Shown here piece by piece: positions 16,513 to 50,450 of a stretch of 64,000 bases of DNA. The notes beneath the pieces were generated by a model that was given only the letters and a program-made list of their open reading frames with translations, made no database searches and was not told where the DNA came from. Source of the DNA: a virus; IMG/VR virus record IMGVR_UViG_3300040801_002079, positions 95,837 through 159,836 of that record. One strand, 5' to 3'. The position numbers were made by a program, and so were the translations under genes. The first letter of the stretch is position 1; each line of letters opens with the position of its first letter.

Positions 16513-17090
16513 TGACTAAAGAAAAGGGCAATAACAACCCCTTCAAGTCTGCAATAGAAAAAGCTAAAAAGGATTTAGAAGGATTCGATGAAGCCATGGA
16601 GATTGTTAAAGAGTTGAGAAACCCAACAAAGAATAGGCCGTTTATTCACAAAGAGCGGGTACAGAAAGGACCCTATGAGGTTGTGGAAGAAGAAACCACG
16701 TATGATGAAATTGATGAAATTTTTGGTACGGATGGTAACAATCTTGTAAGTTCAATGATGCAAAGAATTCGTGATTACGAAGATGTAATTAAAACTTTAA
16801 CCGATGAAAATAAAAGATTAAAGAATTCTAATAAAATTTCGGTCATTTCTGAGGACATTTCCAGTCTAAGAGATTGGATTTTAGGGGAATCCAAAAGGCT
16901 AAATGATGAAATTAGGAATATATCTAAAGTTGTCAAGGATGTTAAAAAGTGCAAGGTTTATGTACTAGATTCAAGAGGTAATATGATTGAAGAGAGTGAT
17001 GATACACCGTTATCTGCAATTAGATATATACAAAGAGATGATGTATTAAGAGTTTTTAAAAACAGGAGGCTGGTTGATAAAAATGGCTAA
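16512..17090 (+). CDS. hypothetical protein
   Basis: ORF track, 192 aa. Confidence 0.55.
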   Translation: MTKEKGNNNPFKSAIEKAKKDLEGFDEAMEIVKELRNPTKNRPFIHKERVQKGPYEVVEEETTYDEIDEIFGTDGNNLVSSMMQRIRDYEDVIKTLTDENKRLKNSNKISVISEDISSLRDWILGESKRLNDEIRNISKVVKDVKKCKVYVLDSRGNMIEESDDTPLSAIRYIQRDDVLRVFKNRRLVDKNG

Positions 17091-18056: not shown

Positions 18057-19376
18057 ATGAAAATTAATGAAGTCATGGGCGGTGAAAAACGAGCCGCGAT
18101 AAAAAAGGGTACGAAAAGACCCATGGGACTTTCCCATAAAATCAATAAACAGTCTAAGAAACTCCAAAATAAAGCTGCTAGACGCAAAAGCAAGCGTGAA
18201 TTGGAATTGTCTGAGTCTATAAATGTAATTCTATTTGAAAAACTAAAATTACTCCATGATAAGAAAAATGGAGTTCTCGCTGTGGCTTCCGACGAAACTG
18301 ACCCCAAAAAGGCAAGCCGAGAAACGTATCGCAATAAAGATGCTCTTAAGTCTGCTGGTTTTAAATGGTCTGGTGGCAACTGGACTATTAGTGATTCTGA
18401 GTTTGAAAAAGCCAAGTCTACATTAACCACAATTAACAAAACAGAATACCTGATTAATAAACTGGAAGATGTTCAGGAATTTATCGGTGATGCTACCAGT
18501 GACCCTAAGAAGGGGAGATTAACCGATATGATTCAGGGTTATATTGATGACTTGGCAAGTGCTACAGATGAAGCCGCTGCTGCCGAAGAAATACGTAAGT
18601 ATTTGGATTTCTTCTCTAATTTTTATCAGTACAGTTTCTTCAATAAGATTTTAATCTATATTCAGAACCCGGATGCAACTCAGGTTGCTAGCTATAAAAA
18701 CTGGAGGAAAAAGCATCGTCAGGTTAAGAAGGGCGCTAAAGGTATGCAGATTCTCGTACCTATATTCCCAAAGGGACGCAATCCAAAATATGATGATGTG
18801 GATGAGGATGATAAAGCTCAGCCAGTAAGATTCATTGTTGGCAGCGTGTTTGATATTAAGGACACGGAAGCTATAGATGAAAGAGGTGAGGCTCCTGAAG
18901 AACCAGAGTGGTGGGGTGACAATACTCCAAGTGAAACGGCTAAAGACCTATTCAATTTGGTTGTCAAGGCAGCAGAAGCTGAAGGCATTGATATAACCTC
19001 TGATGATGCGAAAGGGGGAGAGAAGGGCTACAGTTCTGGTGGACATATTAACATCACATCGAATGTAGAAGGTGTGGGTGAAGTTTCCACGATGGTTCAT
19101 GAGTTTGCACACGAATTAATGCACTGGAAGGATCGCTCCAAGTTTTATGTTGGTGATGAGGCCGCTGGAAACAGGAAACTTAAAGAACTACAAGCCGAGA
19201 GTGTGTCATATGTTGTCCTGAAGCATTATAAGCTTCCAGTTGAGCATCACACTAAATATCTTGCTTTGTGGAGAGCAACCGGTGAAAAAATCAAGAACAA
19301 CATTGAAACAATTTCAAAAGTTGCTCATTACATTATTAAAAAGATTGACGCTCAAGCAGAAAAGAAATCTAAATAA
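18057..19376 (+). CDS. ArdC-like anti-restriction protein (ssDNA-binding N-domain plus HExxH metallopeptidase-like C-domain)
   Basis: ArdC-N-like segment NKILIYIQNPDATQVASYKNWRKKHRQVKKGAKGMQILVPIF; C-terminal HEFAHELMHW. Confidence 0.6.
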   Translation: MKINEVMGGEKRAAIKKGTKRPMGLSHKINKQSKKLQNKAARRKSKRELELSESINVILFEKLKLLHDKKNGVLAVASDETDPKKASRETYRNKDALKSAGFKWSGGNWTISDSEFEKAKSTLTTINKTEYLINKLEDVQEFIGDATSDPKKGRLTDMIQGYIDDLASATDEAAAAEEIRKYLDFFSNFYQYSFFNKILIYIQNPDATQVASYKNWRKKHRQVKKGAKGMQILVPIFPKGRNPKYDDVDEDDKAQPVRFIVGSVFDIKDTEAIDERGEAPEEPEWWGDNTPSETAKDLFNLVVKAAEAEGIDITSDDAKGGEKGYSSGGHINITSNVEGVGEVSTMVHEFAHELMHWKDRSKFYVGDEAAGNRKLKELQAESVSYVVLKHYKLPVEHHTKYLALWRATGEKIKNNIETISKVAHYIIKKIDAQAEKKSK

Positions 19377-20224: not shown

Positions 20225-20524
20225 ATGGATGATTTTTATAAAGAAATTATAGATTATATTCGCAAATCTGATGAAAAGAAGGTTCACTTAGCAGAGTTAT
20301 GGGATGTTTTCTTTGAAGGAAAAGATATTCCTGCCGGGGCTATCATGATGGGGCTATCTCATGATAGCATTAAACGGGTCATAGGCTTGTTTTCTCCGTA
20401 TACTGGAAACCTATTAGAAACATATGATTCTCTTGGGGATATTCCGTATACATGGGATGAAGATGGGGCATCATTTGAAATTAATGATACACATATCAGC
20501 GTGTGGTATGAATTAAATGAGTAA
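20225..20524 (+). CDS. hypothetical protein
   Basis: ORF track, 99 aa. Confidence 0.5.
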   Translation: MDDFYKEIIDYIRKSDEKKVHLAELWDVFFEGKDIPAGAIMMGLSHDSIKRVIGLFSPYTGNLLETYDSLGDIPYTWDEDGASFEINDTHISVWYELNE

Positions 20525-20639
20525 GGTTGGCTTCACATGCTCAACGTTTGATTTAACATATTGGACTTCTGATAAATATAATCAGAAAGAGGAGTCTTTA
20601 TATGTTTGGGTATATCTATATAACAACAAACCTGATTAA
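20517..20639 (+). pseudogene. orphaned 5' fragment of the cytidylyltransferase gene (MSKVGFTCSTFDL...)
   Basis: First 12 codons match the N-terminus of 21264..21680 (KIGFTCSTWDL) but are recoded at the nucleotide level; the frame then runs into the HEG region. Confidence 0.45.
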
Positions 20640-21263
20640 TGATAAGAAATATATTGGAAAAAGATATGGTGCGTTTGATTCAACATATTATGGATCAGGC
20701 ACTATATTAAAAAAGGCTATAGAGAAGTACGGACTTAAAAACTTTAACACTGTACTCTTGAAAGAATGTTGCAATGAAGAAGATATTAATAAATCAGAAA
20801 AAATATTAATACGTGTATTGAATCCGGAATATAACATAGCTGAAGGTGGAGCAGGAGGGAACACTCTACTACATGCGTCAGATGATCATAAATTAGAGGT
20901 GATTAAAAAAAGGTCTATATCCTTAAAGAAAGCATGGGATCGTAAAGATAGGAAAAAGTGGGGCAAAGCTATAAGTGAGGCAAAAAAAGGTAAAAGGTGT
21001 GGCGGGGTTAAAGCACATACTGATGAAACTAAATTGAAAATATCAAAAAGTAATAAAATTGCGGCTAAAAATAGACCGGAATCATGGAAAGTTAATCACC
21101 AAATTGCGTCAGAAAAGAGGAAGGGTATTCCAAATAAAAAATGCATGAAACCCCTAATCCTAGATGGTAAAAAGTATAATAGTAGAAAAGAGGCAGCGAA
21201 GAAACTTGGTGTAACGGGATCAATGATAACTTACTATATTAAAAAGGGTAGAGGTAGATATTT
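20525..21263 (+). mobile_element. homing-endonuclease cassette inserted at the 5' end of the cytidylyltransferase gene
   Basis: HEG flanked by a diverged duplicate of the target gene's first ~13 codons. Confidence 0.4.
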
Positions 21264-21267
21264 ATGA
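20602..21267 (+). CDS. GIY-YIG homing endonuclease
   Basis: N-terminal GYIYITTNLINDKKYIGK motif; basic DNA-binding C-terminus. Confidence 0.65.
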   Translation: MFGYIYITTNLINDKKYIGKRYGAFDSTYYGSGTILKKAIEKYGLKNFNTVLLKECCNEEDINKSEKILIRVLNPEYNIAEGGAGGNTLLHASDDHKLEVIKKRSISLKKAWDRKDRKKWGKAISEAKKGKRCGGVKAHTDETKLKISKSNKIAAKNRPESWKVNHQIASEKRKGIPNKKCMKPLILDGKKYNSRKEAAKKLGVTGSMITYYIKKGRGRYL

Positions 21268-21680
21268 AAATAGGGTTTACGTGCAGTACATGGGATTTAT
21301 TACATTCCGGGCATATTATCATGTTACGACAAGCTAAAGCACAGTGTGACTACCTGATTTGTGGACTCCAAGTTGATCCATCTGTTGACCGCTCTGAAAA
21401 AAATTCTCCCGTGCAAACATTGGTTGAGCGATATATTCAATTATCTGCTGTCAAATATGTTGATGAAATTATAACCTATCAAACTGAAAAGGATTTAGAA
21501 GATATATTGCAAATGATTGATATTGATGTCAGAATACTAGGCGAGGAATACCGAGAAAAAGATTTTACCGGTAAAGCAATTTGCAGAAAAAGAGGTATTG
21601 ACTTATTCTTCAACAAGAGGGATCATAGATTTTCTACTTCCGATTTAAGGAAGCGAGTTATGGAGGCAAACAATGTCTGA
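21264..21680 (+). CDS. cytidylyltransferase-like nucleotidyltransferase (HxGH motif)
   Basis: GFTCSTWDLLHSGH matches the (T/H)xGH nucleotidyltransferase signature. Confidence 0.55.
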   Translation: MKIGFTCSTWDLLHSGHIIMLRQAKAQCDYLICGLQVDPSVDRSEKNSPVQTLVERYIQLSAVKYVDEIITYQTEKDLEDILQMIDIDVRILGEEYREKDFTGKAICRKRGIDLFFNKRDHRFSTSDLRKRVMEANNV

Positions 21681-27059: not shown

Positions 27060-27280
27060 TGGTTTTTACTCAACTGCTCTTACTTTCCGTTCTTATAATG
27101 TTAGTAGGAGCACTAGCCCCATTAGGACTTTTTCATTTATTACCAGCCGCTTTTAGTAATATCTTAGGTTTTGTAGGAATAATGACCATATCCATTGGAC
27201 TTATAGTTTATGGTGTGTTATTATATGCTTCAACATTGCAGATTTTATTTAAGAGATTAGGTTGGATAAAAAATGGATAA
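27059..27280 (+). CDS. small membrane protein
   Basis: ORF track, 73 aa. Confidence 0.5.
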   Translation: MVFTQLLLLSVLIMLVGALAPLGLFHLLPAAFSNILGFVGIMTISIGLIVYGVLLYASTLQILFKRLGWIKNG

Positions 27281-28001
27281 AACAAATTTAGGTGACCGCA
27301 TGAAAGGCTATGAGGTTGTACCACGAGTGCAACTGATGCGCCGTACACCTGTTATTATGCGATTAGATGGAAAGGCGTTTCATACTTATACTCGTCATGA
27401 ACTGTATAATGATGAAGGAGCGTTCAGTAATCGCTTAAAGGAAATCTTTGCTAACTCCGTGTTCAGCCTGATTCAAGAAATTCAGGGTGCCGCGTTTGCA
27501 TATTTGCAATCAGATGAAGTTTCCATCTTAATTACTGATTGGAAAAAGTTAACGACCCACGCATGGTTTAATTATAACACTCAAAAAATCACAAGTGTTG
27601 CGGCATCAATGTTCACATACTTCTTCAACGAAGAGGCTCGAATGAGAGGCATTGAGTCTCCAGCATTTTTTGATGCAAGAGCGTTCAATCTGCCTTTTGA
27701 AGAAGTTACAAATTATTTCATCTGGCGACAACAGGATGCAACCAGAAATAGCATTCAGATGCTGGGAAGGGAATACTTTTCCCACAAGGAATTAAATGGT
27801 AAAAATGTGTCTAATATTCAGGACATGTTAATGAATGTGCATGGAGTAAACTGGAATGATATTCCGACTTGGCACAAGCGAGGGTTTGCTATTAAGTCAT
27901 TTTTACATGAAGATCGTAGAACTTTTGGAATCGATCCCGAAATTCCAGTGTTTACAAAGAATAGAGGGTATATAGAAAAACATCTTGTATTTGAAGATTA
28001 G
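27273..28001 (+). CDS. Thg1-like protein (tRNA-His guanylyltransferase family 3'-5' nucleotidyltransferase)
   Basis: IMRLDGKAFHTYT, AYLQSDEVSIL, NYFIWRQQDATRN match Thg1/TLP conserved blocks. Confidence 0.65.
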   Translation: MDKTNLGDRMKGYEVVPRVQLMRRTPVIMRLDGKAFHTYTRHELYNDEGAFSNRLKEIFANSVFSLIQEIQGAAFAYLQSDEVSILITDWKKLTTHAWFNYNTQKITSVAASMFTYFFNEEARMRGIESPAFFDARAFNLPFEEVTNYFIWRQQDATRNSIQMLGREYFSHKELNGKNVSNIQDMLMNVHGVNWNDIPTWHKRGFAIKSFLHEDRRTFGIDPEIPVFTKNRGYIEKHLVFED

Positions 28002-28275: not shown

Positions 28276-28890
28276 ATGAAAATTTTATTTTTGTCGATAT
28301 GGCTATCGGCTGCGTATTTTTTATACTCAATTCCTTACGAGGATTATATCATCGAAGAGGATTTGGTTCCCGTGTCTGATGCGGAACTCAATCTTCCTGT
28401 TCGTAAAGTTCCACCCAAGGTGGGGCTAGAACCTCTTTTTTCTGAAAGCGAGGTTTTGTGTCTGCAACAAAACATATTTTTTGAAGCCCGCAATCAGGGC
28501 TACGAAGCTAAGATCGCAGTCGCATGGGTTACTTTAAACCGAGTTAACCACTCTCGCCATGCAAATGATATATGCGGGGTAGTGAAACACGCTATCTATA
28601 AAAATGGTTTGCCGGTTAAAAATCGATGTGCATTTAGTTGGTTCTGTGATCGAAAGCCAGATCGTCCATCAAATAATAAAATAGAATTACGTGCATGGGA
28701 CGAAGCCGGATATATTGCGCGAAAATTTTTAATGAATTGTTTAGATGGTAAAACGGAGTTGTGCCCGGAAGACCCCACTCACGGGGCAACATTTTATTTT
28801 AACCCAACTTTAGCTGATCCACACTGGAAAAATGTAAAGGTTAAAACTGTGGCTATCGATGATCACGTTTTTTATCGATATAATGATTAA
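28276..28890 (+). CDS. SleB-like cell-wall hydrolase (Hydrolase_2 family) with N-terminal TM/signal anchor
   Basis: FFEARNQGYEAKIAVAWVTLNRV...CGVV resembles the SleB/CwlJ family. Confidence 0.5.
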   Translation: MKILFLSIWLSAAYFLYSIPYEDYIIEEDLVPVSDAELNLPVRKVPPKVGLEPLFSESEVLCLQQNIFFEARNQGYEAKIAVAWVTLNRVNHSRHANDICGVVKHAIYKNGLPVKNRCAFSWFCDRKPDRPSNNKIELRAWDEAGYIARKFLMNCLDGKTELCPEDPTHGATFYFNPTLADPHWKNVKVKTVAIDDHVFYRYND

Positions 28891-31319: not shown

Positions 31320-32684
31320 ATGAATGAAGTAAGCACAGGTTTTAATATTTGGCTGGTTCTCGTTCCCCTCATTTTGGTTGGTGGCGTAGTAATCTGGCTA
31401 GGATTATCGAAATGGCTGCGTGTCGCCGTCAAACCCAATGAAGTACATATTGTTCAATCATCAAACAAACGTGTTTCGTATGGCGGTGATGGTTCCGCTA
31501 AAAACGTTTATTGGCGCTGGCCCGAGTGGGTCCCCATTTTGGGTGTTGAAGTAATTGAGTTACCTCTTTCCGTATTTGATCTTGATCTTCCTAATTATGA
31601 AGCATACGATCAGGACAAAGTACCCTTTATGGTTGATGTAAAGGCGTTCTTCCGCATTATGGATTCCCGCATTGCATCAGAGCGAGTAGAAAACATGCAT
31701 GAACTTAATGAACAGTTGCTTGCGATTGTTCAGGGTACTATTCGTAAGGTTCTTGCCATGCATGATGTTGAAAAGATCATGGTTGATCGTGCAACTTTTG
31801 GCGAACTCTTTACAGAAGAGACCACTGAGAGTCTTGCAGCATGGGGTGTTGAAAATGTCAAGAACATTGAACTCATGGATGTTCGTGACGCTAAAGGCTC
31901 TGAAACCATCTCTAACATCATGGCAAAGCGTGAATCTTTTATTGAGAAAGAATCTCGCATTGAAGTAGCCGAAAACCGTAAAGCAGCCGCCCAGAAAGAA
32001 ATTGAAGCACAGCGTGAAGTTGATATTTCCGAACAGGAAGCTGAACAAAAGGTTGGTGAGCGCACTGCCGAAAAAACCAAGATGGTTGGTATTGCTGAAG
32101 AAATGGCTCAGCAGGAAATTAAAGAGCAAGCCCGTGTTACTGCCGAGAAAGATATGGCGGTTAAAAAGGTTAACGATGTCAGAACTGCTGAAATTAATAG
32201 AGAGGTTCGTGTGGTTCAGGCAGACGAAGCCAAGCAGGTTGACATTGTTGAATCCGAAGGTAAGAAGCAAGAAGCTATCATCGTTGCTGAAGGTATGAAG
32301 GAATCTGAATTCTTACGAGCAATGGGTATTGAAAAGGTTGGTAACGCGGAGGCTGAGGCCATTAAAGCTAAGGGTCTTGCAGAAGTTGCGCCCGATATCC
32401 GTCTTGCCGAAGAGATTGGTGAAAATGAAGGATATCAGGAATACCTTGTTAAAATTCGTGTTCAGGATAAAGAACAAGCGGTTGGTGAAGAAGCTGCAAG
32501 AGCACTCCAAACTGGTGATCTTAAAATTATCGCCAATGCTGGAGATGTTAATGGCGGCATGAATAGCCTGCTTGATATCTTTTCTTCAAAGGGTGGAACT
32601 AACCTTGGTGCAGCGTTAGAGGGTCTTGCTCAAACTGAAGTCGGTGGGGCACTTCTCAATAAGGTGACTGGAACCAAGGATTGA
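31320..32684 (+). CDS. SPFH/band-7 (flotillin-like) membrane protein
   Basis: N-terminal TM, SPFH-like core, long Ala/Glu/Lys coiled-coil C-terminus. Confidence 0.6.
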   Translation: MNEVSTGFNIWLVLVPLILVGGVVIWLGLSKWLRVAVKPNEVHIVQSSNKRVSYGGDGSAKNVYWRWPEWVPILGVEVIELPLSVFDLDLPNYEAYDQDKVPFMVDVKAFFRIMDSRIASERVENMHELNEQLLAIVQGTIRKVLAMHDVEKIMVDRATFGELFTEETTESLAAWGVENVKNIELMDVRDAKGSETISNIMAKRESFIEKESRIEVAENRKAAAQKEIEAQREVDISEQEAEQKVGERTAEKTKMVGIAEEMAQQEIKEQARVTAEKDMAVKKVNDVRTAEINREVRVVQADEAKQVDIVESEGKKQEAIIVAEGMKESEFLRAMGIEKVGNAEAEAIKAKGLAEVAPDIRLAEEIGENEGYQEYLVKIRVQDKEQAVGEEAARALQTGDLKIIANAGDVNGGMNSLLDIFSSKGGTNLGAALEGLAQTEVGGALLNKVTGTKD

Positions 32685-32707
32685 TTTAATCCCACCAGTA
32701 TGATATA

Positions 32708-32741
32708 AAAGAACCCTCGCTTATGCGGGGGTTTCTTTTTG
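32708..32741 (+). terminator. rho-independent terminator
   Basis: GAACCCTCGC-TTAT-GCGGGGGTTTC followed by TTTTT. Confidence 0.6.
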
Positions 32742-32750
32742 GAGAAGAAT

Positions 32751-33533
32751 ATGAAATGGGTAATACAGGATAATTTATACAATGAAGATGGGTACGTTAG
32801 ATTTATTGAAGCATTGGACAATCAAAAACAGGATTACGAGGTTGTAAAGGTTGTCCCATTCGCTCATGAATTAATTCCAGATATAGACTTAAACTATAGG
32901 CCCATCTTGGTCATGGGGTCAGACTCTCTTATTGCTGCTGCACAGAAGAAGAACTGGTACCCCGGTGCTTTCACCAATCCCGTTACATTCCACCAGAGTA
33001 TGTGGAACAGAAAACTTGGGATTAACATGCTCAATTATGATGCGCAGATTGTAAAGTTCGGGGATGTTCGTGCCCCTAATGATAGCGAAGAGTTTTTTAT
33101 TAGACCAGCATTGGATTTTAAAATTTTTGCTGGAACGGTAATAGATGCTGATAGTTTTGAAAAATGGCAAGAAAAGGCTGTTGCCTATGGGGACACATTA
33201 AATGCGGATACAGAAGTCGTAATCGCTTCACCGAAAGTAATTTATGAGGAATATAGATTCTTTGTTGTGAATTTCAAAATTGTTACTGCATCCCGTTATA
33301 AGATAGGCAATAGAGTTAAACCGGACACCGAGGTTCCATCAGAGGCGGTTCAGTTTGTTACCGATATGACTAACTATTGGAACCCAGATATTGCATACGT
33401 CATTGATGTTGCCAAGACTCCAAAGGGGTTTAAAGTGATTGAATATAACTGCATTAATGCGTCAGGATTTTATGCATGTGACTGTGAAAAAATTGTTTCT
33501 GCATTGTACGAGCAAGTTCGCTGGTTGAAATAA
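32751..33533 (+). CDS. ATP-grasp-like domain protein (putative)
   Basis: Blocks FFIRPALDFKIF, EEYRFFVV, VIEYNCINASG resemble the ATP-grasp fold; ATG within track ORF 32739..33533. Confidence 0.4.
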   Translation: MKWVIQDNLYNEDGYVRFIEALDNQKQDYEVVKVVPFAHELIPDIDLNYRPILVMGSDSLIAAAQKKNWYPGAFTNPVTFHQSMWNRKLGINMLNYDAQIVKFGDVRAPNDSEEFFIRPALDFKIFAGTVIDADSFEKWQEKAVAYGDTLNADTEVVIASPKVIYEEYRFFVVNFKIVTASRYKIGNRVKPDTEVPSEAVQFVTDMTNYWNPDIAYVIDVAKTPKGFKVIEYNCINASGFYACDCEKIVSALYEQVRWLK

Positions 33534-33541
33534 ATACTGGT

Positions 33542-34036
33542 ATGAAACTTAATGAAATTGCGTCCAGTCGAGCATTAAAAACAAAAAAAGGTAGCCTCAT
33601 TAAACGCTCCAAGTTTGGAGTTGGGAAACTTATTGGTGGGTACCTCTATCTACATAGAAATTACATCAATGATTTGCCTCCGGAGTTAAAACAAAAAATT
33701 ATTGCAGCCGAAGAATATCTTGATGGGTTCGAATATAATACAGTTAAGGTTGGGTTAAAAAATGATGTTGTAACATTTATAAATTCATCAGATTTTGATG
33801 AATCCCCGGAACCCACTGTAGGCAAATATGTTTCAATAAATTCATCGGGTGATACTAAAACCGGTTCCAGTAATGCAATCTGGCATCATAAATGGCTATG
33901 GGTCAAGGATGATTATCAGGGATTTGATGTGGAGGATTCATTTGAGCGATCCAAGAAATATCTGGAAATGGACATAGATTTCTCTAGAATAGGTAATAAA
34001 ACATTTTGGGAGGACAACTATGCCAACAAACTATAA
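33542..34036 (+). CDS. hypothetical protein
   Basis: ORF track, 164 aa. Confidence 0.5.
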   Translation: MKLNEIASSRALKTKKGSLIKRSKFGVGKLIGGYLYLHRNYINDLPPELKQKIIAAEEYLDGFEYNTVKVGLKNDVVTFINSSDFDESPEPTVGKYVSINSSGDTKTGSSNAIWHHKWLWVKDDYQGFDVEDSFERSKKYLEMDIDFSRIGNKTFWEDNYANKL

Positions 34037-34739
34037 CCCATATACCCCACAGGCAGTCTCTGAGTGGCATCAAGAGCTTTCTAAACATGTCGGATGGCAT
34101 GTACGTCATGTCGTAGATTATTTCCTAGACAGGGGCTTCACAGAGATTAAGATGATTGATGTTGGATGCTGCACTGGAAGGCTGGTTGAGCTAATGAATG
34201 AGCGTATAACCATTTCTGATGCAATCCTCATTGATGCCATATCCGAATTAACAGATCATGCAAAATCAATATTCGGGGACAAATACAAATATGAAACCAC
34301 TGTTCTTGGAAACAAAATAGGAGTAACGGACATTACTTTGCCTCAGCCAACAAACGGCGCTGTAAACTTAGGGGGAGCAACTGCACGAAAACAGGCAAAC
34401 GATGTTCGCCCCAATGTCCCCATAAATACATTTGACGCACTATGGAAAGAGAAGTACATGGGGTTTGAACCCAACCTAATCAAAATAGATGCTGAAGGTT
34501 TGGATATAGATGTTATAGAAGGTATGAGGGAATTCTTAACATCTCTGGATACCAAGCCCCTCATTGTTTATGAGATAGCGGGCATAAATATGTCTGAAGA
34601 CGAAGTTGATGAGGTATATGATAGGCTTTCATTTTTAACCGAAATGGGATATGAGCCAATCTGGGAAGATTCCCTAGCTCCGAAGAAATGTTGTGACTTA
34701 GTAATAGGTATTAAAGATGAAATTGAAACAATTATATGA
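34020..34739 (+). CDS. FkbM-family methyltransferase
   Basis: MIDVGCCTGR ... LIKIDAEGLDIDVIEGMREFL. Confidence 0.55.
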   Translation: MPTNYNPYTPQAVSEWHQELSKHVGWHVRHVVDYFLDRGFTEIKMIDVGCCTGRLVELMNERITISDAILIDAISELTDHAKSIFGDKYKYETTVLGNKIGVTDITLPQPTNGAVNLGGATARKQANDVRPNVPINTFDALWKEKYMGFEPNLIKIDAEGLDIDVIEGMREFLTSLDTKPLIVYEIAGINMSEDEVDEVYDRLSFLTEMGYEPIWEDSLAPKKCCDLVIGIKDEIETII

Positions 34740-35121
34740 AGCGGATTTAAATTGGGCTACACGGGATAATGCTCAGCGTCCCGGAAACTTTGATGATAAA
34801 AATTATGTACTATTAATGGTTAACATTAAAGACACTTTTGACAATGGACACTCTGGTTTCAAATTAGATGTTGAAGATGAAAAAGGTGGACCCAATGCAA
34901 TTGGTGATAGGTTGACCAAAGCTAAGGCACATTTTGAACAAGGGAAGCCCATGGACTATCCCGAAGTTGCATACAATCTATCAACAAAAACAGTAGATTA
35001 TACCAATGGTAGACATCGTGCGGTTGCAGCATATCAAATGGGTAAATGGTTTATTCCTATGTTCGTATCAAAAGATGGGCTTCACAAATTCAAAGAGGTT
35101 GTAAGAACCCTTCCAATCTGA
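34717..35121 (+). CDS. ParB/Srx-like domain protein (putative)
   Basis: TNGRHRAVAAYQMG resembles the ParB N-domain DGxHR motif; weak. Confidence 0.35.
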   Translation: MKLKQLYEADLNWATRDNAQRPGNFDDKNYVLLMVNIKDTFDNGHSGFKLDVEDEKGGPNAIGDRLTKAKAHFEQGKPMDYPEVAYNLSTKTVDYTNGRHRAVAAYQMGKWFIPMFVSKDGLHKFKEVVRTLPI

Positions 35122-35127
35122 TATAAT
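35099..35127 (+). promoter_or_regulatory. sigma70-type promoter (TTGTAA-N17-TATAAT) 6 nt upstream of ATG 35134
   Basis: Read directly. Confidence 0.45.
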
Positions 35128-35133
35128 CACATC

Positions 35134-35592
35134 ATGTGGTTACCAGATTTTAGCAATTTATTCTATGGAACATCAAATGTCAAGAATGGCAGAATCGGCA
35201 CTCATTTCAATATTGGGTGGCTTTCGCATCGCCATGAGTTTCCCACCGGAAGCATTGATGATGAAATCTTAAATAAATTAAGAGCATATCCCATTGTTAA
35301 TAGATGTAGAGGATTTCATCCCTGTGATTTTTGTGAAGAAAATGTGTTTGGTAATGGTGAAATTCATGTGATAAGTAACGGTGGGGTTGAATTTAGATCA
35401 CCCCAAATGCTCATTCATTATATTGAATTCCATAGTTATTTGCCACCTCAACCATTTCTAGACGCAGTTATTGGGTTGCCTGTAAGCAGAAATGATGTTA
35501 TTCAGTATATCTTACACCATCACGAACCAACCCTCCAATTCTATGAAGAATGGGAGAAGGGGTTACAGACATATCTTAATAAATTTGGATAG
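35134..35592 (+). CDS. hypothetical protein
   Basis: ORF track, 152 aa. Confidence 0.5.
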   Translation: MWLPDFSNLFYGTSNVKNGRIGTHFNIGWLSHRHEFPTGSIDDEILNKLRAYPIVNRCRGFHPCDFCEENVFGNGEIHVISNGGVEFRSPQMLIHYIEFHSYLPPQPFLDAVIGLPVSRNDVIQYILHHHEPTLQFYEEWEKGLQTYLNKFG

Positions 35593-35596
35593 ATAT

Positions 35597-38500
35597 TTAC
35601 CCTGAAACTGTCGGTGTTACGGTTATTGTCGGTGTAACCGTAGCTGTAACAGTTGGTGTAACCGTTAATGTCGGTGTAACCGTAGCTGTAACAGTTGGTG
35701 TAACTGTATTTGTTGGCGTAATCGTTGGTGTAACCGTAGTAGTCGGAGTTACTGTTGGGGTTAATGAAATAGTAGCTGTAACAGTTGGTGTAACGGTTGG
35801 TGTAGGAGTAGGAGTAGCTTCGATGCCCTTCCATTTTAAAACCAGAGAGTCAATAACTTGCTCAACTGTGAAATCATTTAATCCACCCTGAATAAAAATA
35901 ACTTCACCTATATCAGCATTGAGTCCATCAACCATTGTCATATCATTACAAAATATCCATGATTCATCCACAACAAATGAATCAACATCCAGTGTTCCAG
36001 TGTCAACAATTTCACTGTTATAATATGCCTTAACAGACGTACCATCCTTGAATATTCCACGAATAACAATTTCACCCGCTTCGGGATTATTTCCTACACC
36101 TTGTGTTAATGTTAATTCCGTTCCTCCATCTGGATAGAACGTAGCTATCGGTCCATCATCAACAGTGGAATTATAGAGTCTAATTCTTGCTGAACTTGTG
36201 TCGGTACTAGAAAAGAATGTGTCGGTGGAACTGTTAGCTATATTGGCAGTTACCCAGAACATCCCAACATTTGAAAAATCACTTATAGCGTTCCCCTGTG
36301 TTCCAACATTTACCGCGCCCGTCACACGGGCAACACTGAGGCCGTTAAATGCATTTTCTCTATATGTTATATTGGCTGCATTCCTCCATGAGGGCATTGT
36401 GCCGGAATTATTAACCCATGCAGAAACTGATTGACCATCAGTTGGGTTAGTTATAATTTCCCCCTCCGATGATCCCGTTGATAACCACTGTCCATCACTT
36501 GCGTCAAGCCATGTTATAACGGAAACATCCGTATCATCAATCCACCAATTTGGTTTATCATATAAGTCATGATATGTGAAGCCATTGCCGCTATTGTAGA
36601 AGAATGAAATGTCTCCATCAGCTAATAAAACATCACCGTGCACGGCTTGTCCTATATTGCCTTGGAATTTATATCCAGTATTGGAGCCATAAAGTCCCAT
36701 ATTGGTGTACATCCATTGATTGTCACCAGTATTAGACGTTGGATTAGATGGGGTGTTGGTTACAGTATGCCACTCAAACGGAGACCCGTTTACAGAAATT
36801 CCCATTCTGCCAAGAGTTGAATCCCATTGGACGCAAATTAAATATCGCTGAAGTCTCTGATATTCTTCACTGAATAGTAAAATTTCATCGTCAATTAAAT
36901 CTGAATTATTTCTACAAACAAACGCTATTTCGTTTCGGTGTGTACCAAAACTATCAGATATTGATATGCCGGAATCATAAGGGTTATAGGGATTATTAAC
37001 TTCACTCACGTACCTAATCCCTCGTCCTCTGAGCATCAAGAACCACCCATCTCCTTGCCCATCTTCGCCTGCTGGTCCCTTTTCTGAGCCAACACTTATA
37101 AGCGTTTTATCAGAAACATCTTCCATTGGCTCACACCATATCCAGTGGAACCAATCATTATCAAAATTAAATGATTCTGCTCTTGTTGAACCACTATTCC
37201 ATCCAGATGTTGAATTATTTGAAAGCACATTATATTCCCTTCCAGTTATCATATCTTCATCTCTAACGGTGGAAATATCCCATGGAGTTGACATATCAAA
37301 TTCATAAAAAGCGTCATAGGCATGTGTCATAAAGAGCTTTGTACCATCTGAGCTAATATCAATTCCATATATCTGCGATGAATCACCTTGCAGGTAATTA
37401 AAGTTATGACTGTTAGTTAATGTTGCGCTGGTTATATCCCAAGCCGTACTCAGTGTATATTGTTCAAGCTCTGCAAAATCTGCTGTTCTATTGCGGCACA
37501 TTACATACATTTCAGTGCCATCGGGCTTAAATTTTAATCCTACTGGAGAGTCGGAGGTTGACGTTGTTGCAAGTGGAGTTCCACCAGATACACTTGATGT
37601 TATATCCCATGGTGTTCCTAATGTGTATTCAGAGATAGCATCTGTGCCAATAGATGTGCCGAAGAACTTTGTTCCATCGGGGCTAATATAAATACCATGC
37701 ATCTCACTATTAACTACAAGCTCCCCCGCAATGGGTGCAGCATTTATATCCCAAGGTGTTGAGCATGTTAACTGATAAATCTTAAATGTGCTGGGATTTC
37801 TCTCTTCTACCGATACATAGAGACTGGTGCCATCGGGACTGAATATAGCAGCATTTGTAGCGGCCCAGCGTGATATATCTTCAACATCAGGATGATAAAG
37901 ATTGCGTCTATTCCCATCACATGTTGCTGTTGTTACATCCCATGGCGTTGACAGTGTAAATGTGAACAAATCGCTGCCGAATTCGGTAAGGATATATAAT
38001 TTGGTTCCGTCTGAAGATATATCCATATCCTGTGGAACCCCATCCCAGAAATTAATTTCAAATCTACCTTCTAGTGTTGCTGTGCTCAAATCTTTAGGTG
38101 TTGACATTAGATATTGTGTAATCCAATTACCCTCTTCACCTAAAATATACAATCTGGTATTATCATCGCTTATATGAAGCGCTCTTGCTCCGCTGTGTAG
38201 GCTTTCATCTACTGATAGTTCAATACTATCATAAGTCATGGTACTAATGTCCCATGGAGTTGAAAGGCTAAATGAATGCAATGCAAAGTAATCTGCTGGC
38301 ACTAAATATCGATCAGCTATAGCAAAATATTTAGTTCCATCGGATGAAAAAGCTCCCCCATACTCTGCCCAATCAACGCCCAACGTCGATAAATCAAGGT
38401 AGTAATAACTTGTAGGGTCTAATGTTGTTATATCCCAAGCAGTGGATAGAGTATATGATGCTACGCCACCATTGCCGTGCTCATACATAATCAAACCATC

Positions 38501-40219
38501 TGAGGAAAATTCAATACCATCTTCTTCACCTACATAATAATTAGTATCACTTGTTTTATAATCGGTGTACGCTGAATTTATATCCCATGGTGTTCTTAAC
38601 TCTATCTGATAAACATTGTCTTCCCATGATCCATAAAAATAAAAATATCTACCATCTATGCTAAAAGTTGATGCTAGGGTGCCACCATCTATCCAAGAAA
38701 AGAATTTAGCATTTGATACATGTGCCCCCTCTATTGACCATGGTTTGTTAATTGTTTGCTCACATATTCCACTATTCCCGAAATCTGTCACGAATAACCG
38801 TGTCCCATCATCTACAAAGTGTATACCAGTAGGATTTTGCCACGGTTCCGTTACGTGCATTCTTTCCACAATATTGGTGAGGTTCATCGGATCAAACCCT
38901 TCGTCTCTTATATTCGTGGTTCTATCTCCGGTTGTTTCATCCCAATATGCCGTTTTTATAAATGCCCCGGAACTCTCGTCTGCTGTGTTTTCGTTTGTTA
39001 TAACAGGCTTTTCTCTGGAAGCATCTTGATTAAACTCGAACCATGTGATAACACTTGGGTATATTGGAGGAGCGGGTGACGGCGTAGGGGTTGGTGCCAG
39101 ATAAACATATTCGATGATCAGTTTTTCAGATATTCCAACCTTAACATGTGAATGTTTGGGCGTACTACACTCACCATCACCGTCAAATCCAGCCGTATTA
39201 ACATATCCATATAATTTAACGAATCCAGTGCTTGCAGATGTTGGGACCAAATCAGCTAGATGTATAATGGTTTCATTCGCATTTTTATCATATTCAGATC
39301 GAATAATCTTATACTGCTTATCACTATCTGTCCCAGTATCTTCAATTTCAATATAACGATTAGGAAGCATACCGGTTCTTAATTGAATACTTCCGTGATT
39401 AGAACCTTCTGTTGTATTCGTAAACGAAGTTTGGGTCGTACTATGTAAATTTATTGTTGTAAAGTTGCCATCGAAGTTATAACTTTCGATTAAATATGCT
39501 CCGTTATTCTTGTTACCAATTTTATATTCGACAATGGCGTTATCCAATCCAACCGCTATTGGTTTACTCTCAGATATAACAATTGTTGTAATATTTGATA
39601 TGGAATCGTATGTTGCAGATAGTACAGTGTACATATCGTCATCAACATCCGCATTATATAGTTTAAACCTGCCCTCATTGATCAACTCTTGTGTATAATT
39701 TCCCTTAACAAGAATTTGTGTCTCTGTGGTAGTGTGTACATCAAGGGTTCTTACGGGAACAACCAAAAATAATTTCTGAAAAGCTAGCTGTGGACGAATA
39801 TCGCCCCTAACCACAATTGAATCATATGTTGGTATGGAATCAATTTGTGCGCGAACATCATATGTGTTATTACCTGAAATGCGAACGGTGTCAGTTACGT
39901 TTTCTATTTCATTGATGGGCAATACGTTTACAAGATCGGAGTTATCAAAAATTACACCATAACCACCAAGACACTCAAACAAATCACAGCAGTCAACCGA
40001 GTCGAATCCACATTCGCCATCCCATGTATATCCATAACCCACTGTTTGACACAAGGGATTATTTTTATAGTCGATGTTAAAAAATATATTTTCCTCGAAC
40101 TTTACATCCAAATCTTCTCGAAAATTATAGTTCTCAATAATTTCTAGAATTTTCGTATGGTACGGTTTAACGTCAAGAAAATATTTTTTAAACGAGTCGG
40201 TTGGTCTTGAGTTAGTCAT
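35597..40219 (-). CDS. giant tail-fibre/structural protein (1540 aa) with repeated STPWDI modules and C-terminal Thr-Pro-Val linker
   Basis: At least 9 copies of L(S/G)TPWDI(S/T) at roughly 60-70 aa spacing; C-terminal (TPTV)n tail; ATG with upstream GATAAATA. Confidence 0.65.
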   Translation of the reverse strand: MTNSRPTDSFKKYFLDVKPYHTKILEIIENYNFREDLDVKFEENIFFNIDYKNNPLCQTVGYGYTWDGECGFDSVDCCDLFECLGGYGVIFDNSDLVNVLPINEIENVTDTVRISGNNTYDVRAQIDSIPTYDSIVVRGDIRPQLAFQKLFLVVPVRTLDVHTTTETQILVKGNYTQELINEGRFKLYNADVDDDMYTVLSATYDSISNITTIVISESKPIAVGLDNAIVEYKIGNKNNGAYLIESYNFDGNFTTINLHSTTQTSFTNTTEGSNHGSIQLRTGMLPNRYIEIEDTGTDSDKQYKIIRSEYDKNANETIIHLADLVPTSASTGFVKLYGYVNTAGFDGDGECSTPKHSHVKVGISEKLIIEYVYLAPTPTPSPAPPIYPSVITWFEFNQDASREKPVITNENTADESSGAFIKTAYWDETTGDRTTNIRDEGFDPMNLTNIVERMHVTEPWQNPTGIHFVDDGTRLFVTDFGNSGICEQTINKPWSIEGAHVSNAKFFSWIDGGTLASTFSIDGRYFYFYGSWEDNVYQIELRTPWDINSAYTDYKTSDTNYYVGEEDGIEFSSDGLIMYEHGNGGVASYTLSTAWDITTLDPTSYYYLDLSTLGVDWAEYGGAFSSDGTKYFAIADRYLVPADYFALHSFSLSTPWDISTMTYDSIELSVDESLHSGARALHISDDNTRLYILGEEGNWITQYLMSTPKDLSTATLEGRFEINFWDGVPQDMDISSDGTKLYILTEFGSDLFTFTLSTPWDVTTATCDGNRRNLYHPDVEDISRWAATNAAIFSPDGTSLYVSVEERNPSTFKIYQLTCSTPWDINAAPIAGELVVNSEMHGIYISPDGTKFFGTSIGTDAISEYTLGTPWDITSSVSGGTPLATTSTSDSPVGLKFKPDGTEMYVMCRNRTADFAELEQYTLSTAWDITSATLTNSHNFNYLQGDSSQIYGIDISSDGTKLFMTHAYDAFYEFDMSTPWDISTVRDEDMITGREYNVLSNNSTSGWNSGSTRAESFNFDNDWFHWIWCEPMEDVSDKTLISVGSEKGPAGEDGQGDGWFLMLRGRGIRYVSEVNNPYNPYDSGISISDSFGTHRNEIAFVCRNNSDLIDDEILLFSEEYQRLQRYLICVQWDSTLGRMGISVNGSPFEWHTVTNTPSNPTSNTGDNQWMYTNMGLYGSNTGYKFQGNIGQAVHGDVLLADGDISFFYNSGNGFTYHDLYDKPNWWIDDTDVSVITWLDASDGQWLSTGSSEGEIITNPTDGQSVSAWVNNSGTMPSWRNAANITYRENAFNGLSVARVTGAVNVGTQGNAISDFSNVGMFWVTANIANSSTDTFFSSTDTSSARIRLYNSTVDDGPIATFYPDGGTELTLTQGVGNNPEAGEIVIRGIFKDGTSVKAYYNSEIVDTGTLDVDSFVVDESWIFCNDMTMVDGLNADIGEVIFIQGGLNDFTVEQVIDSLVLKWKGIEATPTPTPTVTPTVTATISLTPTVTPTTTVTPTITPTNTVTPTVTATVTPTLTVTPTVTATVTPTITVTPTVSG
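35629..35712 (-). repeat. 42-bp tandem repeat x2 encoding TPTV linker
   Basis: tcggtgtaaccgtagctgtaacagttggtgtaac... repeated. Confidence 0.6.
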
Positions 40220-43289: not shown

Positions 43290-43607
43290 ATGGATGGTGT
43301 TTTAATAGTATTGGCTCTACTTCTGGGCGTTATTATTTCCGCGTGTGCAATAGCATACAAAGAAAGAAAATTTGAGCCACCGGTCACTGATGAACAAGAT
43401 AATGTTGTTGTTAACGGCGTTGTTTTGGGTAAGTATTACGGAGACCCTGAAACCAAAACATGCGTAGAAGTTATAGCGGTTGAAGATGATATGGTCGCCT
43501 TTCGACATATGAGCGAAGAAATTCACAGTATGCCAAAAAGCGCATTTTTAGAAAAATATTATAAGTATCCCAACGGATGTGAGTTCCCGGAAATTGATAG
43601 ATACTAA
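43290..43607 (+). CDS. membrane-anchored hypothetical protein
   Basis: ORF track, 105 aa. Confidence 0.5.
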   Translation: MDGVLIVLALLLGVIISACAIAYKERKFEPPVTDEQDNVVVNGVVLGKYYGDPETKTCVEVIAVEDDMVAFRHMSEEIHSMPKSAFLEKYYKYPNGCEFPEIDRY

Positions 43608-43881
43608 AGTAGTACACTGTCAGAGCGAACCATATGATATTTATATTGGTAGACCCAGTATATGGGGTAATCCGTTCAAAATAAATGATGGGATGACCCG
43701 CAAAGAAGCTATAAATGCCTATAGGGATTGGATTCTATATTCCCCAGATGCTGAAGAGCAGCGATCTAAATTACACACATTAAAAGGAAAAACACTTGGA
43801 TGTTGGTGTAAGCCAAAATCATGTCATGGGGATGTTTTGGTTGAATTAGCCGACAATAACGTGCTAGACTTGCTATCATGA
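43579..43881 (+). CDS. DUF4326-family protein (CWC motif)
   Basis: YDIYIGRPS...GNPF...GCWCKPKSCHGDVL. Confidence 0.5.
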   Translation: MSSRKLIDTKVVHCQSEPYDIYIGRPSIWGNPFKINDGMTRKEAINAYRDWILYSPDAEEQRSKLHTLKGKTLGCWCKPKSCHGDVLVELADNNVLDLLS

Positions 43882-44324
43882 AATACATTAAACAGGACAT
43901 AACAAAGGTTGAGCGTGGCATCATTGTTCATGGAGTGAATTGTTTAGGTGTTATGGGCAGTGGTGTCGCGCTAGCTATTCGAAACGCCTTTCCAGTTGTA
44001 TATGAAAAGTTTAAAGATGCCCCCACTGGAAAAGACATGTTGGGCACCACCCATATGATTACTGTAAAAGATGATCTTTATGTTGCGAATTGCTACACCC
44101 AAGTGAACTATGGTTCAGATAACAGGCGTTACGCAGACTTAGATGCTGTTCGTAAATGTTTAACGGATTGCTATGATTTTGCCGATTTAATGCAACTCCC
44201 ATTATGTTCAGCTAAAATAGCTAGCCTTCGCGGTGGTCTGGATTGGGATACAGAAGTTGAACCTATTTTTTTGGAACTAAATAAAGAGTATACGAACGTA
44301 GACGTTGCAATTTACTATATATAG
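43878..44324 (+). CDS. macro-domain protein (ADP-ribose binding/hydrolase)
   Basis: GIIVHGVNCLGVMGSGVALAI macro signature. Confidence 0.6.
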   Translation: MKYIKQDITKVERGIIVHGVNCLGVMGSGVALAIRNAFPVVYEKFKDAPTGKDMLGTTHMITVKDDLYVANCYTQVNYGSDNRRYADLDAVRKCLTDCYDFADLMQLPLCSAKIASLRGGLDWDTEVEPIFLELNKEYTNVDVAIYYI

Positions 44325-44729: not shown

Positions 44730-45095
44730 ATGTATACTGCATACGTATTAACAGAAAAATCTAGAAAGACCCTGTTCTTTCTTTTTCCACCAAAATATCC
44801 TGAGGTTATTGGTCACCATATAACCGAAACCTTCGGGGTTTCCAAAGATGCTGAAGCTCCGGAAATGCCAACGCTTGTTGAGGTTGTTGGCTACATCGAC
44901 AATGGTGATGGAGTTGAGGGATTCTTGGTGGAAATAGACGGGTCTAGTGATCGCCCATCTGGTGGTAAATATCACATTACATGGTCAATTGATCGTGATA
45001 AGGGATATAAGCCTGTTAATACTAATGATTATACAAATGATGCAAAACCGGTTAAGCCTGTACGATTGCAGGTTGAACCCAAAGTGCTCCGGTAG
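44730..45095 (+). CDS. hypothetical protein
   Basis: ORF track, 121 aa; its TAG stop lies inside the tRNA. Confidence 0.5.
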   Translation: MYTAYVLTEKSRKTLFFLFPPKYPEVIGHHITETFGVSKDAEAPEMPTLVEVVGYIDNGDGVEGFLVEIDGSSDRPSGGKYHITWSIDRDKGYKPVNTNDYTNDAKPVKPVRLQVEPKVLR

Positions 45096-45163
45096 CTCAG
45101 TTTGGTTAGAGCAAGAGCTTCTAAAACTCATGGTCGTGGGTTCGAATCCCGCCCGGAGCGCCA
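45086..45163 (+). tRNA. tRNA with CUA anticodon (amber-suppressor type); identity unknown; CCA encoded
   Basis: Cloverleaf read by hand: acceptor GCTCCGG/CCGGAGC, D-arm GCTC-AGTTTGGTTA-GAGC, anticodon loop TTCTAAA (U33-CUA-A37), T-arm GTGGG-TTCGAAT-CCCGC, discriminator G, CCA. Anticodon stem has only 3 Watson-Crick pairs. Confidence 0.6.
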
Positions 45164-49883: not shown

Positions 49884-50450
49884 ATGTCACTAATAACAAT
49901 AAGCGGATCGCAAGGTCAAGGCAAAACCACAGTTTTATCATCCCTTGCTGAATTAGGCTATAACGTAATTCCACATAAAACATCCCGTCTGATCTTAGAT
50001 GATTGGGGCTACACTTTAAACGAGGTTAACAAAGATTTAAACTTGAAAAAGAAGTTTCAGGATGAAATTCTTGTTCGCCACGTAGAAAATAATAGAATCG
50101 CATTAGAGTCCGATGAAGTGTTTCTGTCTGAGCGATCTTTCGCTGACATATTCACGTACACTATATTCACTCTTGGAGCATTCAATGAGTATAGTGAGTG
50201 GCTGGACGGGTATTATCAAAAATGTAAGCAGGGTCAGGCAATGTATGACGCGGTTATTTCTTTAAGTGGAAGAACCACTGATATTGACAATGATGGTGTT
50301 AGATCAGTCAATCAACACTTCACTGAATCCATTGATATTGTATTACAGTTTTATCTTGAGCAGTTTACTGGTCCTGATTTGGTTAGAGTTAGCACACCAG
50401 ATCATGCTGAAAGAGTAACAGAGATATGTAATTACATTGATTCCATTTAA
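49884..50450 (+). CDS. P-loop kinase, AAA_28/NadR-type (putative nicotinamide riboside kinase)
   Basis: ITISGSQGQGKTTVLSSLAELGYNVIPHKTSR ... ERSFADIFTYT pattern resembles NadR C-domain kinases. Confidence 0.45.
   Translation: MSLITISGSQGQGKTTVLSSLAELGYNVIPHKTSRLILDDWGYTLNEVNKDLNLKKKFQDEILVRHVENNRIALESDEVFLSERSFADIFTYTIFTLGAFNEYSEWLDGYYQKCKQGQAMYDAVISLSGRTTDIDNDGVRSVNQHFTESIDIVLQFYLEQFTGPDLVRVSTPDHAERVTEICNYIDSI

Follow-up and report, generated by a model that had tools for sequence, protein, structure and literature searches.

A 64-kb stretch of the IMG/VR virus record IMGVR_UViG_3300040801_002079 (positions 95,837 to 159,836; hereafter the window) raises the question of what a Thg1-like protein (TLP) does for a phage. 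The protein is encoded by an open reading frame (ORF) at positions 27273-28001 of the window, and a first-pass annotation made from the nucleotide sequence had described it as part of a dispersed RNA-repair-like gene set. Because characterized TLPs prefer 5′-truncated tRNAs in vitro, and because of the genomic context, we favor a role of this TLP in RNA 5′-end repair together with a Pnkp-type kinase encoded in the same window, and assign this reading a probability of roughly 0.55. Participation of two further genes of the window, a metallophosphoesterase and a minimal RNA ligase, in one pathway with TLP and kinase is plausible but weaker.

Searches of Pfam, PHROG and PDB all placed the ORF in the Thg1 family. 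It matched the Pfam profile PF04446 (Thg1) with 78 bits (E 8.1e-22; gathering cut-off 29.2 bits) over profile positions 2-130 of 130, and PHROG 4717, annotated as ‘tRNA-His guanylyltransferase’, with E 5.1e-82. The TLP of Bacillus thuringiensis (BtTLP, PDB 4KGK) aligned with residues 5-238, i.e., over the full length, at ~50% identity (E 3.8e-63), whereas archaeal TLP and eukaryotic Thg1 structures reached only E 1e-6 to 1e-11; for human and Candida Thg1 the values were 1e-8 to 1e-10 as compared with 4e-63 for BtTLP. All three sequence blocks on which the family assignment had originally been based (RLDGKAFHTYT, AYLQSDEVSIL and FIWRQQDATRN) are present. From these comparisons it is near certain that the ORF encodes an intact bacterial-type TLP and not a eukaryotic-type Thg1, and the protein is a predicted template-dependent 3′-5′ RNA nucleotidyltransferase.

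The active site is intact. In an alignment of 200 sequences (the window TLP, BtTLP, 119 database homologs and 79 homologs from viral contigs), with BtTLP residue roles taken from Hyde et al. 2013 (PMC3701042), the catalytic acidic residues are retained: the BtTLP carboxylates D30, D75 and E76 (D29, D76 and E77 in hTHG1) correspond to D32, D81 and E82 of the window protein and are invariant in 200/200 sequences. BtTLP residues E12, R28, H35, S74, R131 and R147 correspond to E14, R30, H37, S80, R136 and R152, all of which are invariant except for R152 (199/200), and the conserved lysine of the nucleotidyl-transfer site (equivalent to hTHG1 K95) is K105, likewise invariant. The two proteins thus share the catalytic carboxylates, the NTP-binding (nucleoside triphosphate-binding) arginines and lysine, and the histidine at the 3′-OH. 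Met163 occupies the position of BtTLP M158, at which Thg1 enzymes have asparagine (N161 in ScThg1); together with the closest match being BtTLP, this TLP-type residue assigns the predicted protein to the TLP subclass. The window protein differs from BtTLP in being phage-encoded, in a 4-residue insertion that follows the HTYT motif, and in the glycine that comes after this insertion, Gly49, in place of K43.

Evidence for the association of TLP with the kinase comes from bacterial chromosomes. Among 80 TLP loci from representative bacterial genomes, 22 carry a kinase homolog of ~146 amino acids (aa) immediately downstream of TLP, with the stop and start codons abutting or overlapping; these loci are chromosomal and belong to Paenibacillus, Saccharibacillus and Baia. 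By BLAST clustering, 25 of the bacterial loci fell into the kinase family, and the 22-25 loci reproduce the Thg1-PNK (polynucleotide kinase) neighborhood that was reported in 2010 by Anantharaman, Iyer & Aravind (PMC2904730). A profile built from the 22 bacterial kinases matched a single one of the 125 window ORFs, namely the P-loop kinase (E 1.9e-11), and did not match the other P-loop protein of the window (49884-50450). In the roseophage DSS3_MAL1, a kinase homolog and the end of a gene annotated as an RNA ligase overlap.

Both the P-loop kinase and the RNA ligase named in the first-pass annotation, the latter by its motif VTEKMDGEN, were borne out by their Pfam matches and motifs (Table 1). 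The best profile and structure matches of the kinase are polynucleotide or tRNA kinases (Pnkp, T4 Pnk and PSTK). Its best PDB matches were the 171-aa chains 4GP7 and 4JST (E 6e-8), which we take to be the kinase domain of Clostridium thermocellum Pnkp (CthPnkp), followed by a weak match to T4 Pnk (1LY1, E 6e-4). The best NCBIfam match was TIGR04075 (bacter_Pnkp), covering positions 10-155 of 851 (E 6e-14). A fourth repair-type gene, absent from the first-pass annotation, encodes a metallophosphoesterase with the motifs GDIHG, GDYVDRG and GNHE in its translation. The best PDB match of this protein was 4J6O (E 5e-13), presumably the CthPnkp phosphoesterase domain, with lambda phosphatase (1G5B) second, and its best NCBIfam match was again TIGR04075, at positions 184-422 of 851 (E 6e-17). 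These TIGR04075 matches are at the domain level only, and the kinase does not come near the equivalog cut-off set for the full-length protein. Adjacent segments are likewise matched by the kinase and phosphoesterase ORFs in PHROG profiles that describe fused kinase-phosphatase(-ligase) proteins. Since the two proteins match consecutive segments of TIGR04075, the phage appears to possess both healing modules of bacterial Pnkp in split form, encoded by genes that lie 32 kb from each other. The phosphoesterase is therefore a candidate RNA 3′-end healing enzyme of the type of the bacterial Pnkp phosphoesterase domain, although it could alternatively be a lambda-type protein phosphatase. A single kinase-phosphatase-ligase polypeptide with a Pnkp-type C-terminal ligase is not encoded in the window, where the genes are separate, and the other window ORFs that were scanned revealed neither RlaP, 2H phosphoesterase, CCA-adding enzyme or RtcB domains nor a Hen1-like methyltransferase.

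The ligase is a minimal enzyme with an intact active site. An alignment of 36 homologs showed no variation in motifs I (K41xDGEN), III (GE90N), IV (E160GxVxR) and V (K181xxR). In Foldseek searches with an AF2 model (pLDDT 90.2), the top 34 PDB matches were RNA or tRNA ligases, with the exception of 3QWU, which was deposited as a putative DNA ligase. The E values of these matches went down to 6e-6 and TMq was 0.44-0.60; scores of ~0.5 are explained by the protein consisting of nothing but a nucleotidyltransferase domain of 209 aa. The folds matched were of the Rnl3 type and those of Naegleria, TbREL1, T4 Rnl2 and Trl1, while T4 Rnl1 ranked 39th. At the sequence level, neither phmmer nor profile searches of PDB gave a real match, NCBIfam and the Pnkp ligase were not matched either, and the accessory N- or C-terminal domains typical of Rnl1-Rnl5 are missing. 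Without a class-specific accessory domain or a PDB sequence match, the ligase is not assignable to an Rnl class. The family is rare (33 of 50,697 phage records). At least eight of its records (five phages) are also TLP-positive, i.e., RsoM2USA, four Caulobacter phages, Atu_ph07 and two Lak records; this and the other genome-level overlaps of TLP, kinase and ligase are lower bounds among the matches listed.

Table 1 Features of the window discussed in the text, with positions counted from the first nucleotide of the window and identifications predicted from sequence comparison
Feature	Position	Strand	Basis and remarks
Thg1-like protein (bacterial-type TLP), 242 aa	27273-28001	+	ATG to TAG; Pfam, PHROG and PDB matches
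SleB-type cell-wall hydrolase (PF07486)	28276-28890	+	N-terminal hydrophobic segment; just downstream of TLP
SprT-like metalloprotease, 128 aa	30150-30536	+	HELSH motif; start overlaps stop of preceding ORF
Calcineurin-like metallophosphoesterase, 245 aa	30533-31270	+	Pfam Metallophos, E 8e-20
ATP-dependent RNA-ligase-type nucleotidyltransferase, 209 aa	40286-40915	+	Pfam RNA_ligase (PF09414), E 3.5e-30
tRNA with CUA anticodon (amber-suppressor type)	45086-45163	+	ARAGORN; Rfam, 61 bits
PNK-type P-loop kinase, 164 aa	62824-63318	+	Pfam AAA_33, E 6.4e-23; Walker A GLPGVGKST

Conservation of gene order indicates that part of the gene set is retained in the lineage of the window phage. The window (38.6% G+C, 125 predicted genes) had no megablast match among deposited phages and its proteins reach at most ~55% identity to deposited phage proteins, so that by sequence comparison the phage is novel, with no close relative among the 50,697 deposited phage records. 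Fragments identical to the window occur in the JGI metagenome samples 3300040774-79. Because a 316.8-kb contig encodes a homolog of the window ligase with 90% identity or more, the window probably derives from a jumbo phage. Two related contigs, ERR3345678_3635 (TLP 65% identical) and SRR33375158_43454 (ligase 68% identical), share the gene order of the window: TLP, hydrolase, SprT-like protein, phosphoesterase, SPFH protein, R2K ATP-grasp protein and methyltransferase, followed by a large minus-strand gene, RNA ligase, glutaredoxin, DUF4326, Macro, tRNA(CUA) and NT5C. The order of TLP, phosphoesterase and ligase is syntenic in these contigs at 52-68% identity, and the three genes are therefore retained jointly in the lineage; the phosphoesterase is syntenic with TLP in the relatives L083 and L087 (L numbers are our handles for loci). 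The order of TLP, SleB-like hydrolase, dCMP deaminase, SprT-like protein and Pnkp-like phosphoesterase was seen only in this lineage.

Within the window, the ATG of TLP overlaps the stop codon of a small upstream ORF, and the gene sits in an unbroken plus-strand run that includes the SleB-like hydrolase, a dCMP deaminase, the SprT-like ORF and the phosphoesterase, the first strong terminator being located at 32711-32734. The stop codon of the SprT-like ORF overlaps the ATG of the metallophosphoesterase. A promoter scan found 47 promoters as compared with 53.7 expected in shuffled sequence, i.e., no excess, and was not used. L081, L083 and L087 likewise have SprT-like and Metallophos genes as a conserved pair. 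A sleB-like gene also lies just upstream of the RNA ligase-kinase pair of DSS3_MAL1 (L169 4260-4661) and is in this sense a recurrent neighbor of RNA-repair genes (window; DSS3_MAL1).

By homology to BtTLP, which prefers 5′-truncated tRNAs in vitro (PMC3701042; PMC6471195), the window TLP would activate a 5′-monophosphate RNA end with a purine NTP and then add Watson-Crick-templated nucleotides in the 3′-5′ direction, thereby rebuilding a recessed 5′ strand such as that of a 5′-truncated tRNA acceptor stem. The Pnkp-type kinase would convert 5′-OH ends into the 5′-phosphate ends needed by TLP and ligase alike, the metallophosphoesterase would clear 3′-phosphate or cyclic-phosphate ends, and the ligase would seal breaks. 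The four genes would thus constitute a dispersed phage RNA-repair toolkit, expressed from the early or auxiliary region of a jumbo phage. We infer these enzymatic activities, the natural substrate and the action of the four genes in one pathway from homology and genomic context.

Several observations weigh against this repair role, and we regard the evidence for a functional link among the repair-type genes as moderate. The bacterial TLP-kinase operons belong mostly to one family (Paenibacillaceae) and therefore represent few independent events. In 80 viral TLP loci, in which neighbors were counted within 10 kb, the kinase accompanies TLP in only 3-4 and the ligase in five. Bacillus phages with the kinase are Tsamsa-like siphoviruses and not the TLP-bearing Bastille-like myoviruses, and none of the 52 Campylobacter phages with the kinase are TLP carriers among the matches listed. 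The neighbors most often seen with viral TLPs function in nucleotide metabolism (DNA ligase, ThyA, DHFR), a tendency that may stem simply from a location among early genes, and in several phages the kinase is found near NadV. The phosphoesterase resembles lambda-type protein phosphatases, PrpE and ApaH nearly as well as Pnkp. In the TLP itself, the ATP-activation lysine (BtTLP K43, ScThg1 K44) is replaced by Gly49. However, the K43A variant of BtTLP shows ~10-fold lower adenylylation and unchanged guanylylation (PMC3701042), and the equivalent column is variable in the clade (Lys in 46/200); Gly49 therefore suggests a changed NTP preference (ATP vs. GTP activation) rather than inactivity through gene decay. 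Finally, the natural substrates of bacterial TLPs are still to be identified according to a 2019 review in which phages are unmentioned (PMC6471195), and our literature search returned no experimental study of any phage TLP. Overall, the identifications behind the proposed dispersed gene set stand, and the 22 bacterial operons support its TLP-kinase link, but the pairing is often absent in phages, where it is facultative. Phaeobacter phage MD18 is one that carries both genes.

An alternative is that the four genes are separate, with the TLP acting alone on some RNA that need not be a tRNA, the kinase in NAD (nicotinamide adenine dinucleotide) or nucleotide metabolism, the phosphoesterase as a lambda-type protein phosphatase or ApaH-like enzyme, and the ligase apart from all of them. 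Unrelated genes and a minus-strand block intervene between the four, which extend over 36 kb, and TLP and kinase are often found apart in phages. In the window, 0.7 kb separates the kinase gene from the NadV/NMNAT genes, and in several unrelated phages (MD18, DSS3_MAL1, RpAliso and RAS14) its homolog is at a distance of 1-3 kb from NadV. The phosphoesterase fits lambda phosphatase, PrpE and ApaH almost as well as Pnkp, and its homologs carry Ser/Thr phosphatase annotations in 791 phage records. Dispersal is also a property of the repair genes of phage T4, which counts against separate functions. Moreover, the kinase has its best profile and structure matches exclusively among polynucleotide or tRNA kinases; translational coupling connects its homologs with TLP in bacteria and with a gene annotated as an RNA ligase in DSS3_MAL1; and the block from TLP to ligase is kept in related phages. 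Taken together, we consider separate functions possible but rather doubtful.

Additional repair-type genes accompany viral TLPs. A Pol-beta nucleotidyltransferase of the RlaP family (PF10127, ‘RNA repair pathway’) occurs within 10 kb of TLP in 11 of the 80 viral loci (L006, L008, L012, L019, L035, L039, L043, L044, L050, L068 and L071) and directly follows TLP in L035, L043, L068 and L071. Three other candidates for the repair set were rejected. Neighbor family 9 of the viral TLPs, initially considered a 2H RNA phosphoesterase, was identified by Pfam as Acb1 (anti-CBASS) and was dropped. Acb1 (PF23474, E 1e-34) belongs to the TLP block of one lineage (L001, L002, L003, L005, L009, L011, L018, L033 and L040), which also includes ThyA, DHFR, NAD-dependent DNA ligase, PhoH, MazG, ClpP and PrkA/SpoVR-like genes. 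The Macro-like ORF of the window falls below the Pfam threshold and has the DarG antitoxin macrodomain as its best match (NCBIfam NF048014, E 2e-12); the count of Macro BLAST family 10 is inflated by fusion proteins. A Tpt1-like fragment of L083, the closest long relative, has no counterpart in the window. This 79-aa ORF (L083 2628-2867) matches only the N-terminal part of Tpt1/KptA (PF01885) and is possibly a gene remnant.

The tRNA gene that the first-pass annotation had listed alongside the ligase and kinase exists, but has no evident tie to repair. All 7 bp of its acceptor stem are perfect; position 73 is G, position −1 is U, and the CCA is encoded. With its CUA anticodon it is no tRNA-His, with its perfect stem it is no candidate for 5′ repair, and it is without evident connection to TLP. 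Its anticodon stem contains two non-canonical pairs. Recoding of TAG as an explanation for the CUA anticodon was rejected, as TAG ends 22 of the 125 predicted genes, including TLP, and read-through would be short, extending the products by just a few residues. A CUA tRNA occupies the same syntenic position in relatives (L087 15742-15818, L088 14849-14926, L085 4853-4930), and three further CUA tRNAs are found in other TLP loci (L014, L044 and L072).

Two further alternatives concern other tRNA-related roles of TLP. The first is that the enzyme adds G-1 to tRNA-His of the phage or host, templated by C73, allowing histidyl-tRNA synthetase to recognize the tRNA. In vitro, TLPs from bacteria and archaea are able to place G-1 opposite C73 (PMC6471195), and TLP-positive phages are large and often tRNA-rich. 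ARAGORN and Rfam detected no tRNA-His in the 64-kb window, although such a gene may sit elsewhere in a genome that is possibly ~317 kb in size. Within 10 kb of viral TLPs, tRNA-His was found in two of the 80 loci (L048 and L053), too few to decide on linkage. In the tRNA-His gene of L048, G-1 is already encoded opposite C73, as is normal for bacteria, so that no G-1-adding enzyme is needed. The other, a tRNA-His(GUG) located 8 kb from the viral TLP (L053 18327-18403), lacks G at −1; in the ARAGORN register this single case has a U1·C72 mismatch, G73 and an encoded CCA, and its 5′ end is of a kind that a TLP could correct or extend. Further arguments against G-1 addition are that the window protein is of the TLP type, characterized members of which prefer 5′-truncated tRNAs over full-length tRNA-His, and that TLPs occur in phages of Caulobacter, Brevundimonas and Sinorhizobium, members of the alphaproteobacteria, of which several groups are reported to have tRNA-His lacking G-1 (PMC6471195). 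We therefore judge G-1 addition an improbable function.

The second alternative, maturation of phage tRNAs with mismatched or truncated 5′ ends, would resemble mitochondrial tRNA 5′ editing by TLPs in Dictyostelium and Acanthamoeba, the single physiological TLP role reported in the 2019 review (PMC6471195). Phage tRNA arrays are compact, some of their genes being separated by only 1-4 nt, and mismatches at 1:72 do occur: besides the U1·C72 of the L053 tRNA-His, three of the eight tRNAs of L014 are affected (Met C·U, 4462-4538; Leu A·G, 16858-16946; Gln C·A, 20517-20592), an unusual clustering. In contrast, positions 1 and 72 are paired in the ARAGORN structures of 51 of the 55 tRNAs found in TLP neighborhoods (a count made in TLP-positive loci only), i.e., there is no general mismatch signal. 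Only 14 of the 80 viral loci have tRNA genes in the vicinity of TLP, and the acceptor stem of the window tRNA is perfect. A function of the window TLP in tRNA maturation thus seems very unlikely.

If TLP acts in repair, the nature of the damage has to be considered. The first-pass annotation had suggested that TLP extends phage repair to a different class of tRNA damage, for which no agent is known. Our literature search returned no host nuclease that truncates tRNA 5′ ends, and the acceptor-end attacks that it did return (CdiA-CT EC869, MenT and Cas12a3) act on the 3′ side; both results are further points against the repair role. A counter-defense in which TLP and its partner kinase rebuild the 5′ strands of acceptor stems or structured RNAs after attack by an undiscovered host nuclease is a speculation to which we give a low probability. 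In such a setting, Gly49 could allow the phage TLP to activate with GTP and so to work in ATP-depleted cells under abortive infection.

Both the genes and the idea of repair have precedents. TLPs are sporadically distributed in phages, in the early or auxiliary regions of large genomes (PMC7824862). The phage family comprises 162 of the 50,697 deposited records, most of them annotated, and at least 217 IMG/VR contigs, as compared with more than 7,900 homologs in the protein database. Annotated members (PHROG 4717) include Bacillus phage Bc431v3 gp143 and those of Pseudomonas phage 201phi2-1, CcrColossus-like Caulobacter phages and Lak phages. The window TLP is at most 50% identical to any deposited phage copy and 65% identical to the nearest metagenomic copy. 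A phage TLP was flagged in a 2013 phage genome paper (PMC3601020). In 2010, Thg1 was proposed to form a repair set with polynucleotide kinase, Macro and RNA ligase partners, with a caudovirus among the examples (PMC2904730), and the idea of Thg1/kinase/ligase repair was repeated for jumbo phages in 2021 (PMC7824862). The window, in which homologs of the kinase, RNA ligase and Macro components are present, is thus a further example of what has already been published. It differs from the Thg1-PNK(-Macro, -RNA ligase) neighborhoods in that those are single operons whereas its genes are dispersed; specifically, the kinase adjoins TLP in the bacterial operons but lies 35 kb away in the window.

Comparison with characterized repair systems points to bacterial Pnkp (e.g., that of C. 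thermocellum, usually accompanied by Hen1) rather than to T4. The kinase and phosphoesterase of the window each match their own Pnkp domain best, although bacterial Pnkp is one protein of 850 aa and the window has two genes at a distance of 32 kb plus an unrelated stand-alone ligase of the PF09414 type. With T4 Pnkp and Rnl1, which had been named as the classical comparison, the window set shares 5′-kinase and 3′-phosphatase activity (predicted for the window), an ATP-dependent RNA ligase and the logic of healing before sealing. Beyond this logic the comparison holds only loosely. Kinase and phosphoesterase belong to the bacterial Pnkp type, the window phosphatase being calcineurin-like unlike the T4 Pnkp phosphatase domain; the ligase is not Rnl1-like; and T4 is without a TLP.

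The remaining features of the window concern other functions. The Macro-like ORF (43878-44324, plus strand, 148 aa) follows a DUF4326 ORF (43579-43881, plus strand), and the pair is kept in L087 and L088; the protein possibly counters DarT-type ADP-ribosylation. Macro proteins are found within 10 kb of TLP in about six other viral loci. Upstream of the kinase, an NAD-salvage pair on the plus strand encodes a bifunctional NMN (nicotinamide mononucleotide) adenylyltransferase/Nudix protein (59480-60640) and a nicotinamide phosphoribosyltransferase (60670-62121; PHROG 448, E 1e-156), and two other ORFs are cytidylyltransferase-like (21264-21680) and AAA_28 or NadR-kinase-like (49884-50450). Homing-endonuclease-type ORFs lie on the plus strand at 4224-5261, 20602-21267 and 63325-63933 (two PHROG 314, one HNH PHROG 16726), with the HNH gene directly 3′ of the kinase gene. 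A plus-strand block 3′ of the phosphoesterase (31320-35592) encodes a 454-aa SPFH/Band_7 protein, an R2K-clade ATP-grasp protein (PF14243), PHROG 16075, an FkbM-type methyltransferase and DUF7919, and is syntenic in L083/L088 and L087. It is followed on the minus strand (35597-40219) by a 1540-aa ORF that has no Pfam or PHROG match except for a short C-terminal one to PHROG 15511, a profile also matched by the ORFs 48738-49334 and 54127-54615; its counterparts are 1467 aa long in L087 and a partial 1493 aa in L084 (a fragment of the same phage). A 439-aa protein with an ArdC N-terminal domain (PF08401, E 5.5e-10; PHROG 7245, anti-restriction) is encoded at 18057-19376 on the plus strand.

The locus leaves existing suspicions about phage TLPs unchanged. 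It adds one well-defined example from a jumbo-phage lineage and a better account of the partners, i.e., a putative split Pnkp-type kinase and phosphoesterase and a minimal RNA ligase, re-confirms the bacterial TLP-kinase operon, and provides negative evidence against the routine label ‘tRNA-His guanylyltransferase’ as a statement of function. If the counter-defense described above were true, bacterial-type TLPs would have their first physiological role, and a new class of immunity directed at tRNAs would be indicated. The question of the substrate of bacterial-type TLPs is more than 10 years old (PMC6471195), and phages that combine an intact TLP with genes for healing and sealing are a reasonable place to look for it.

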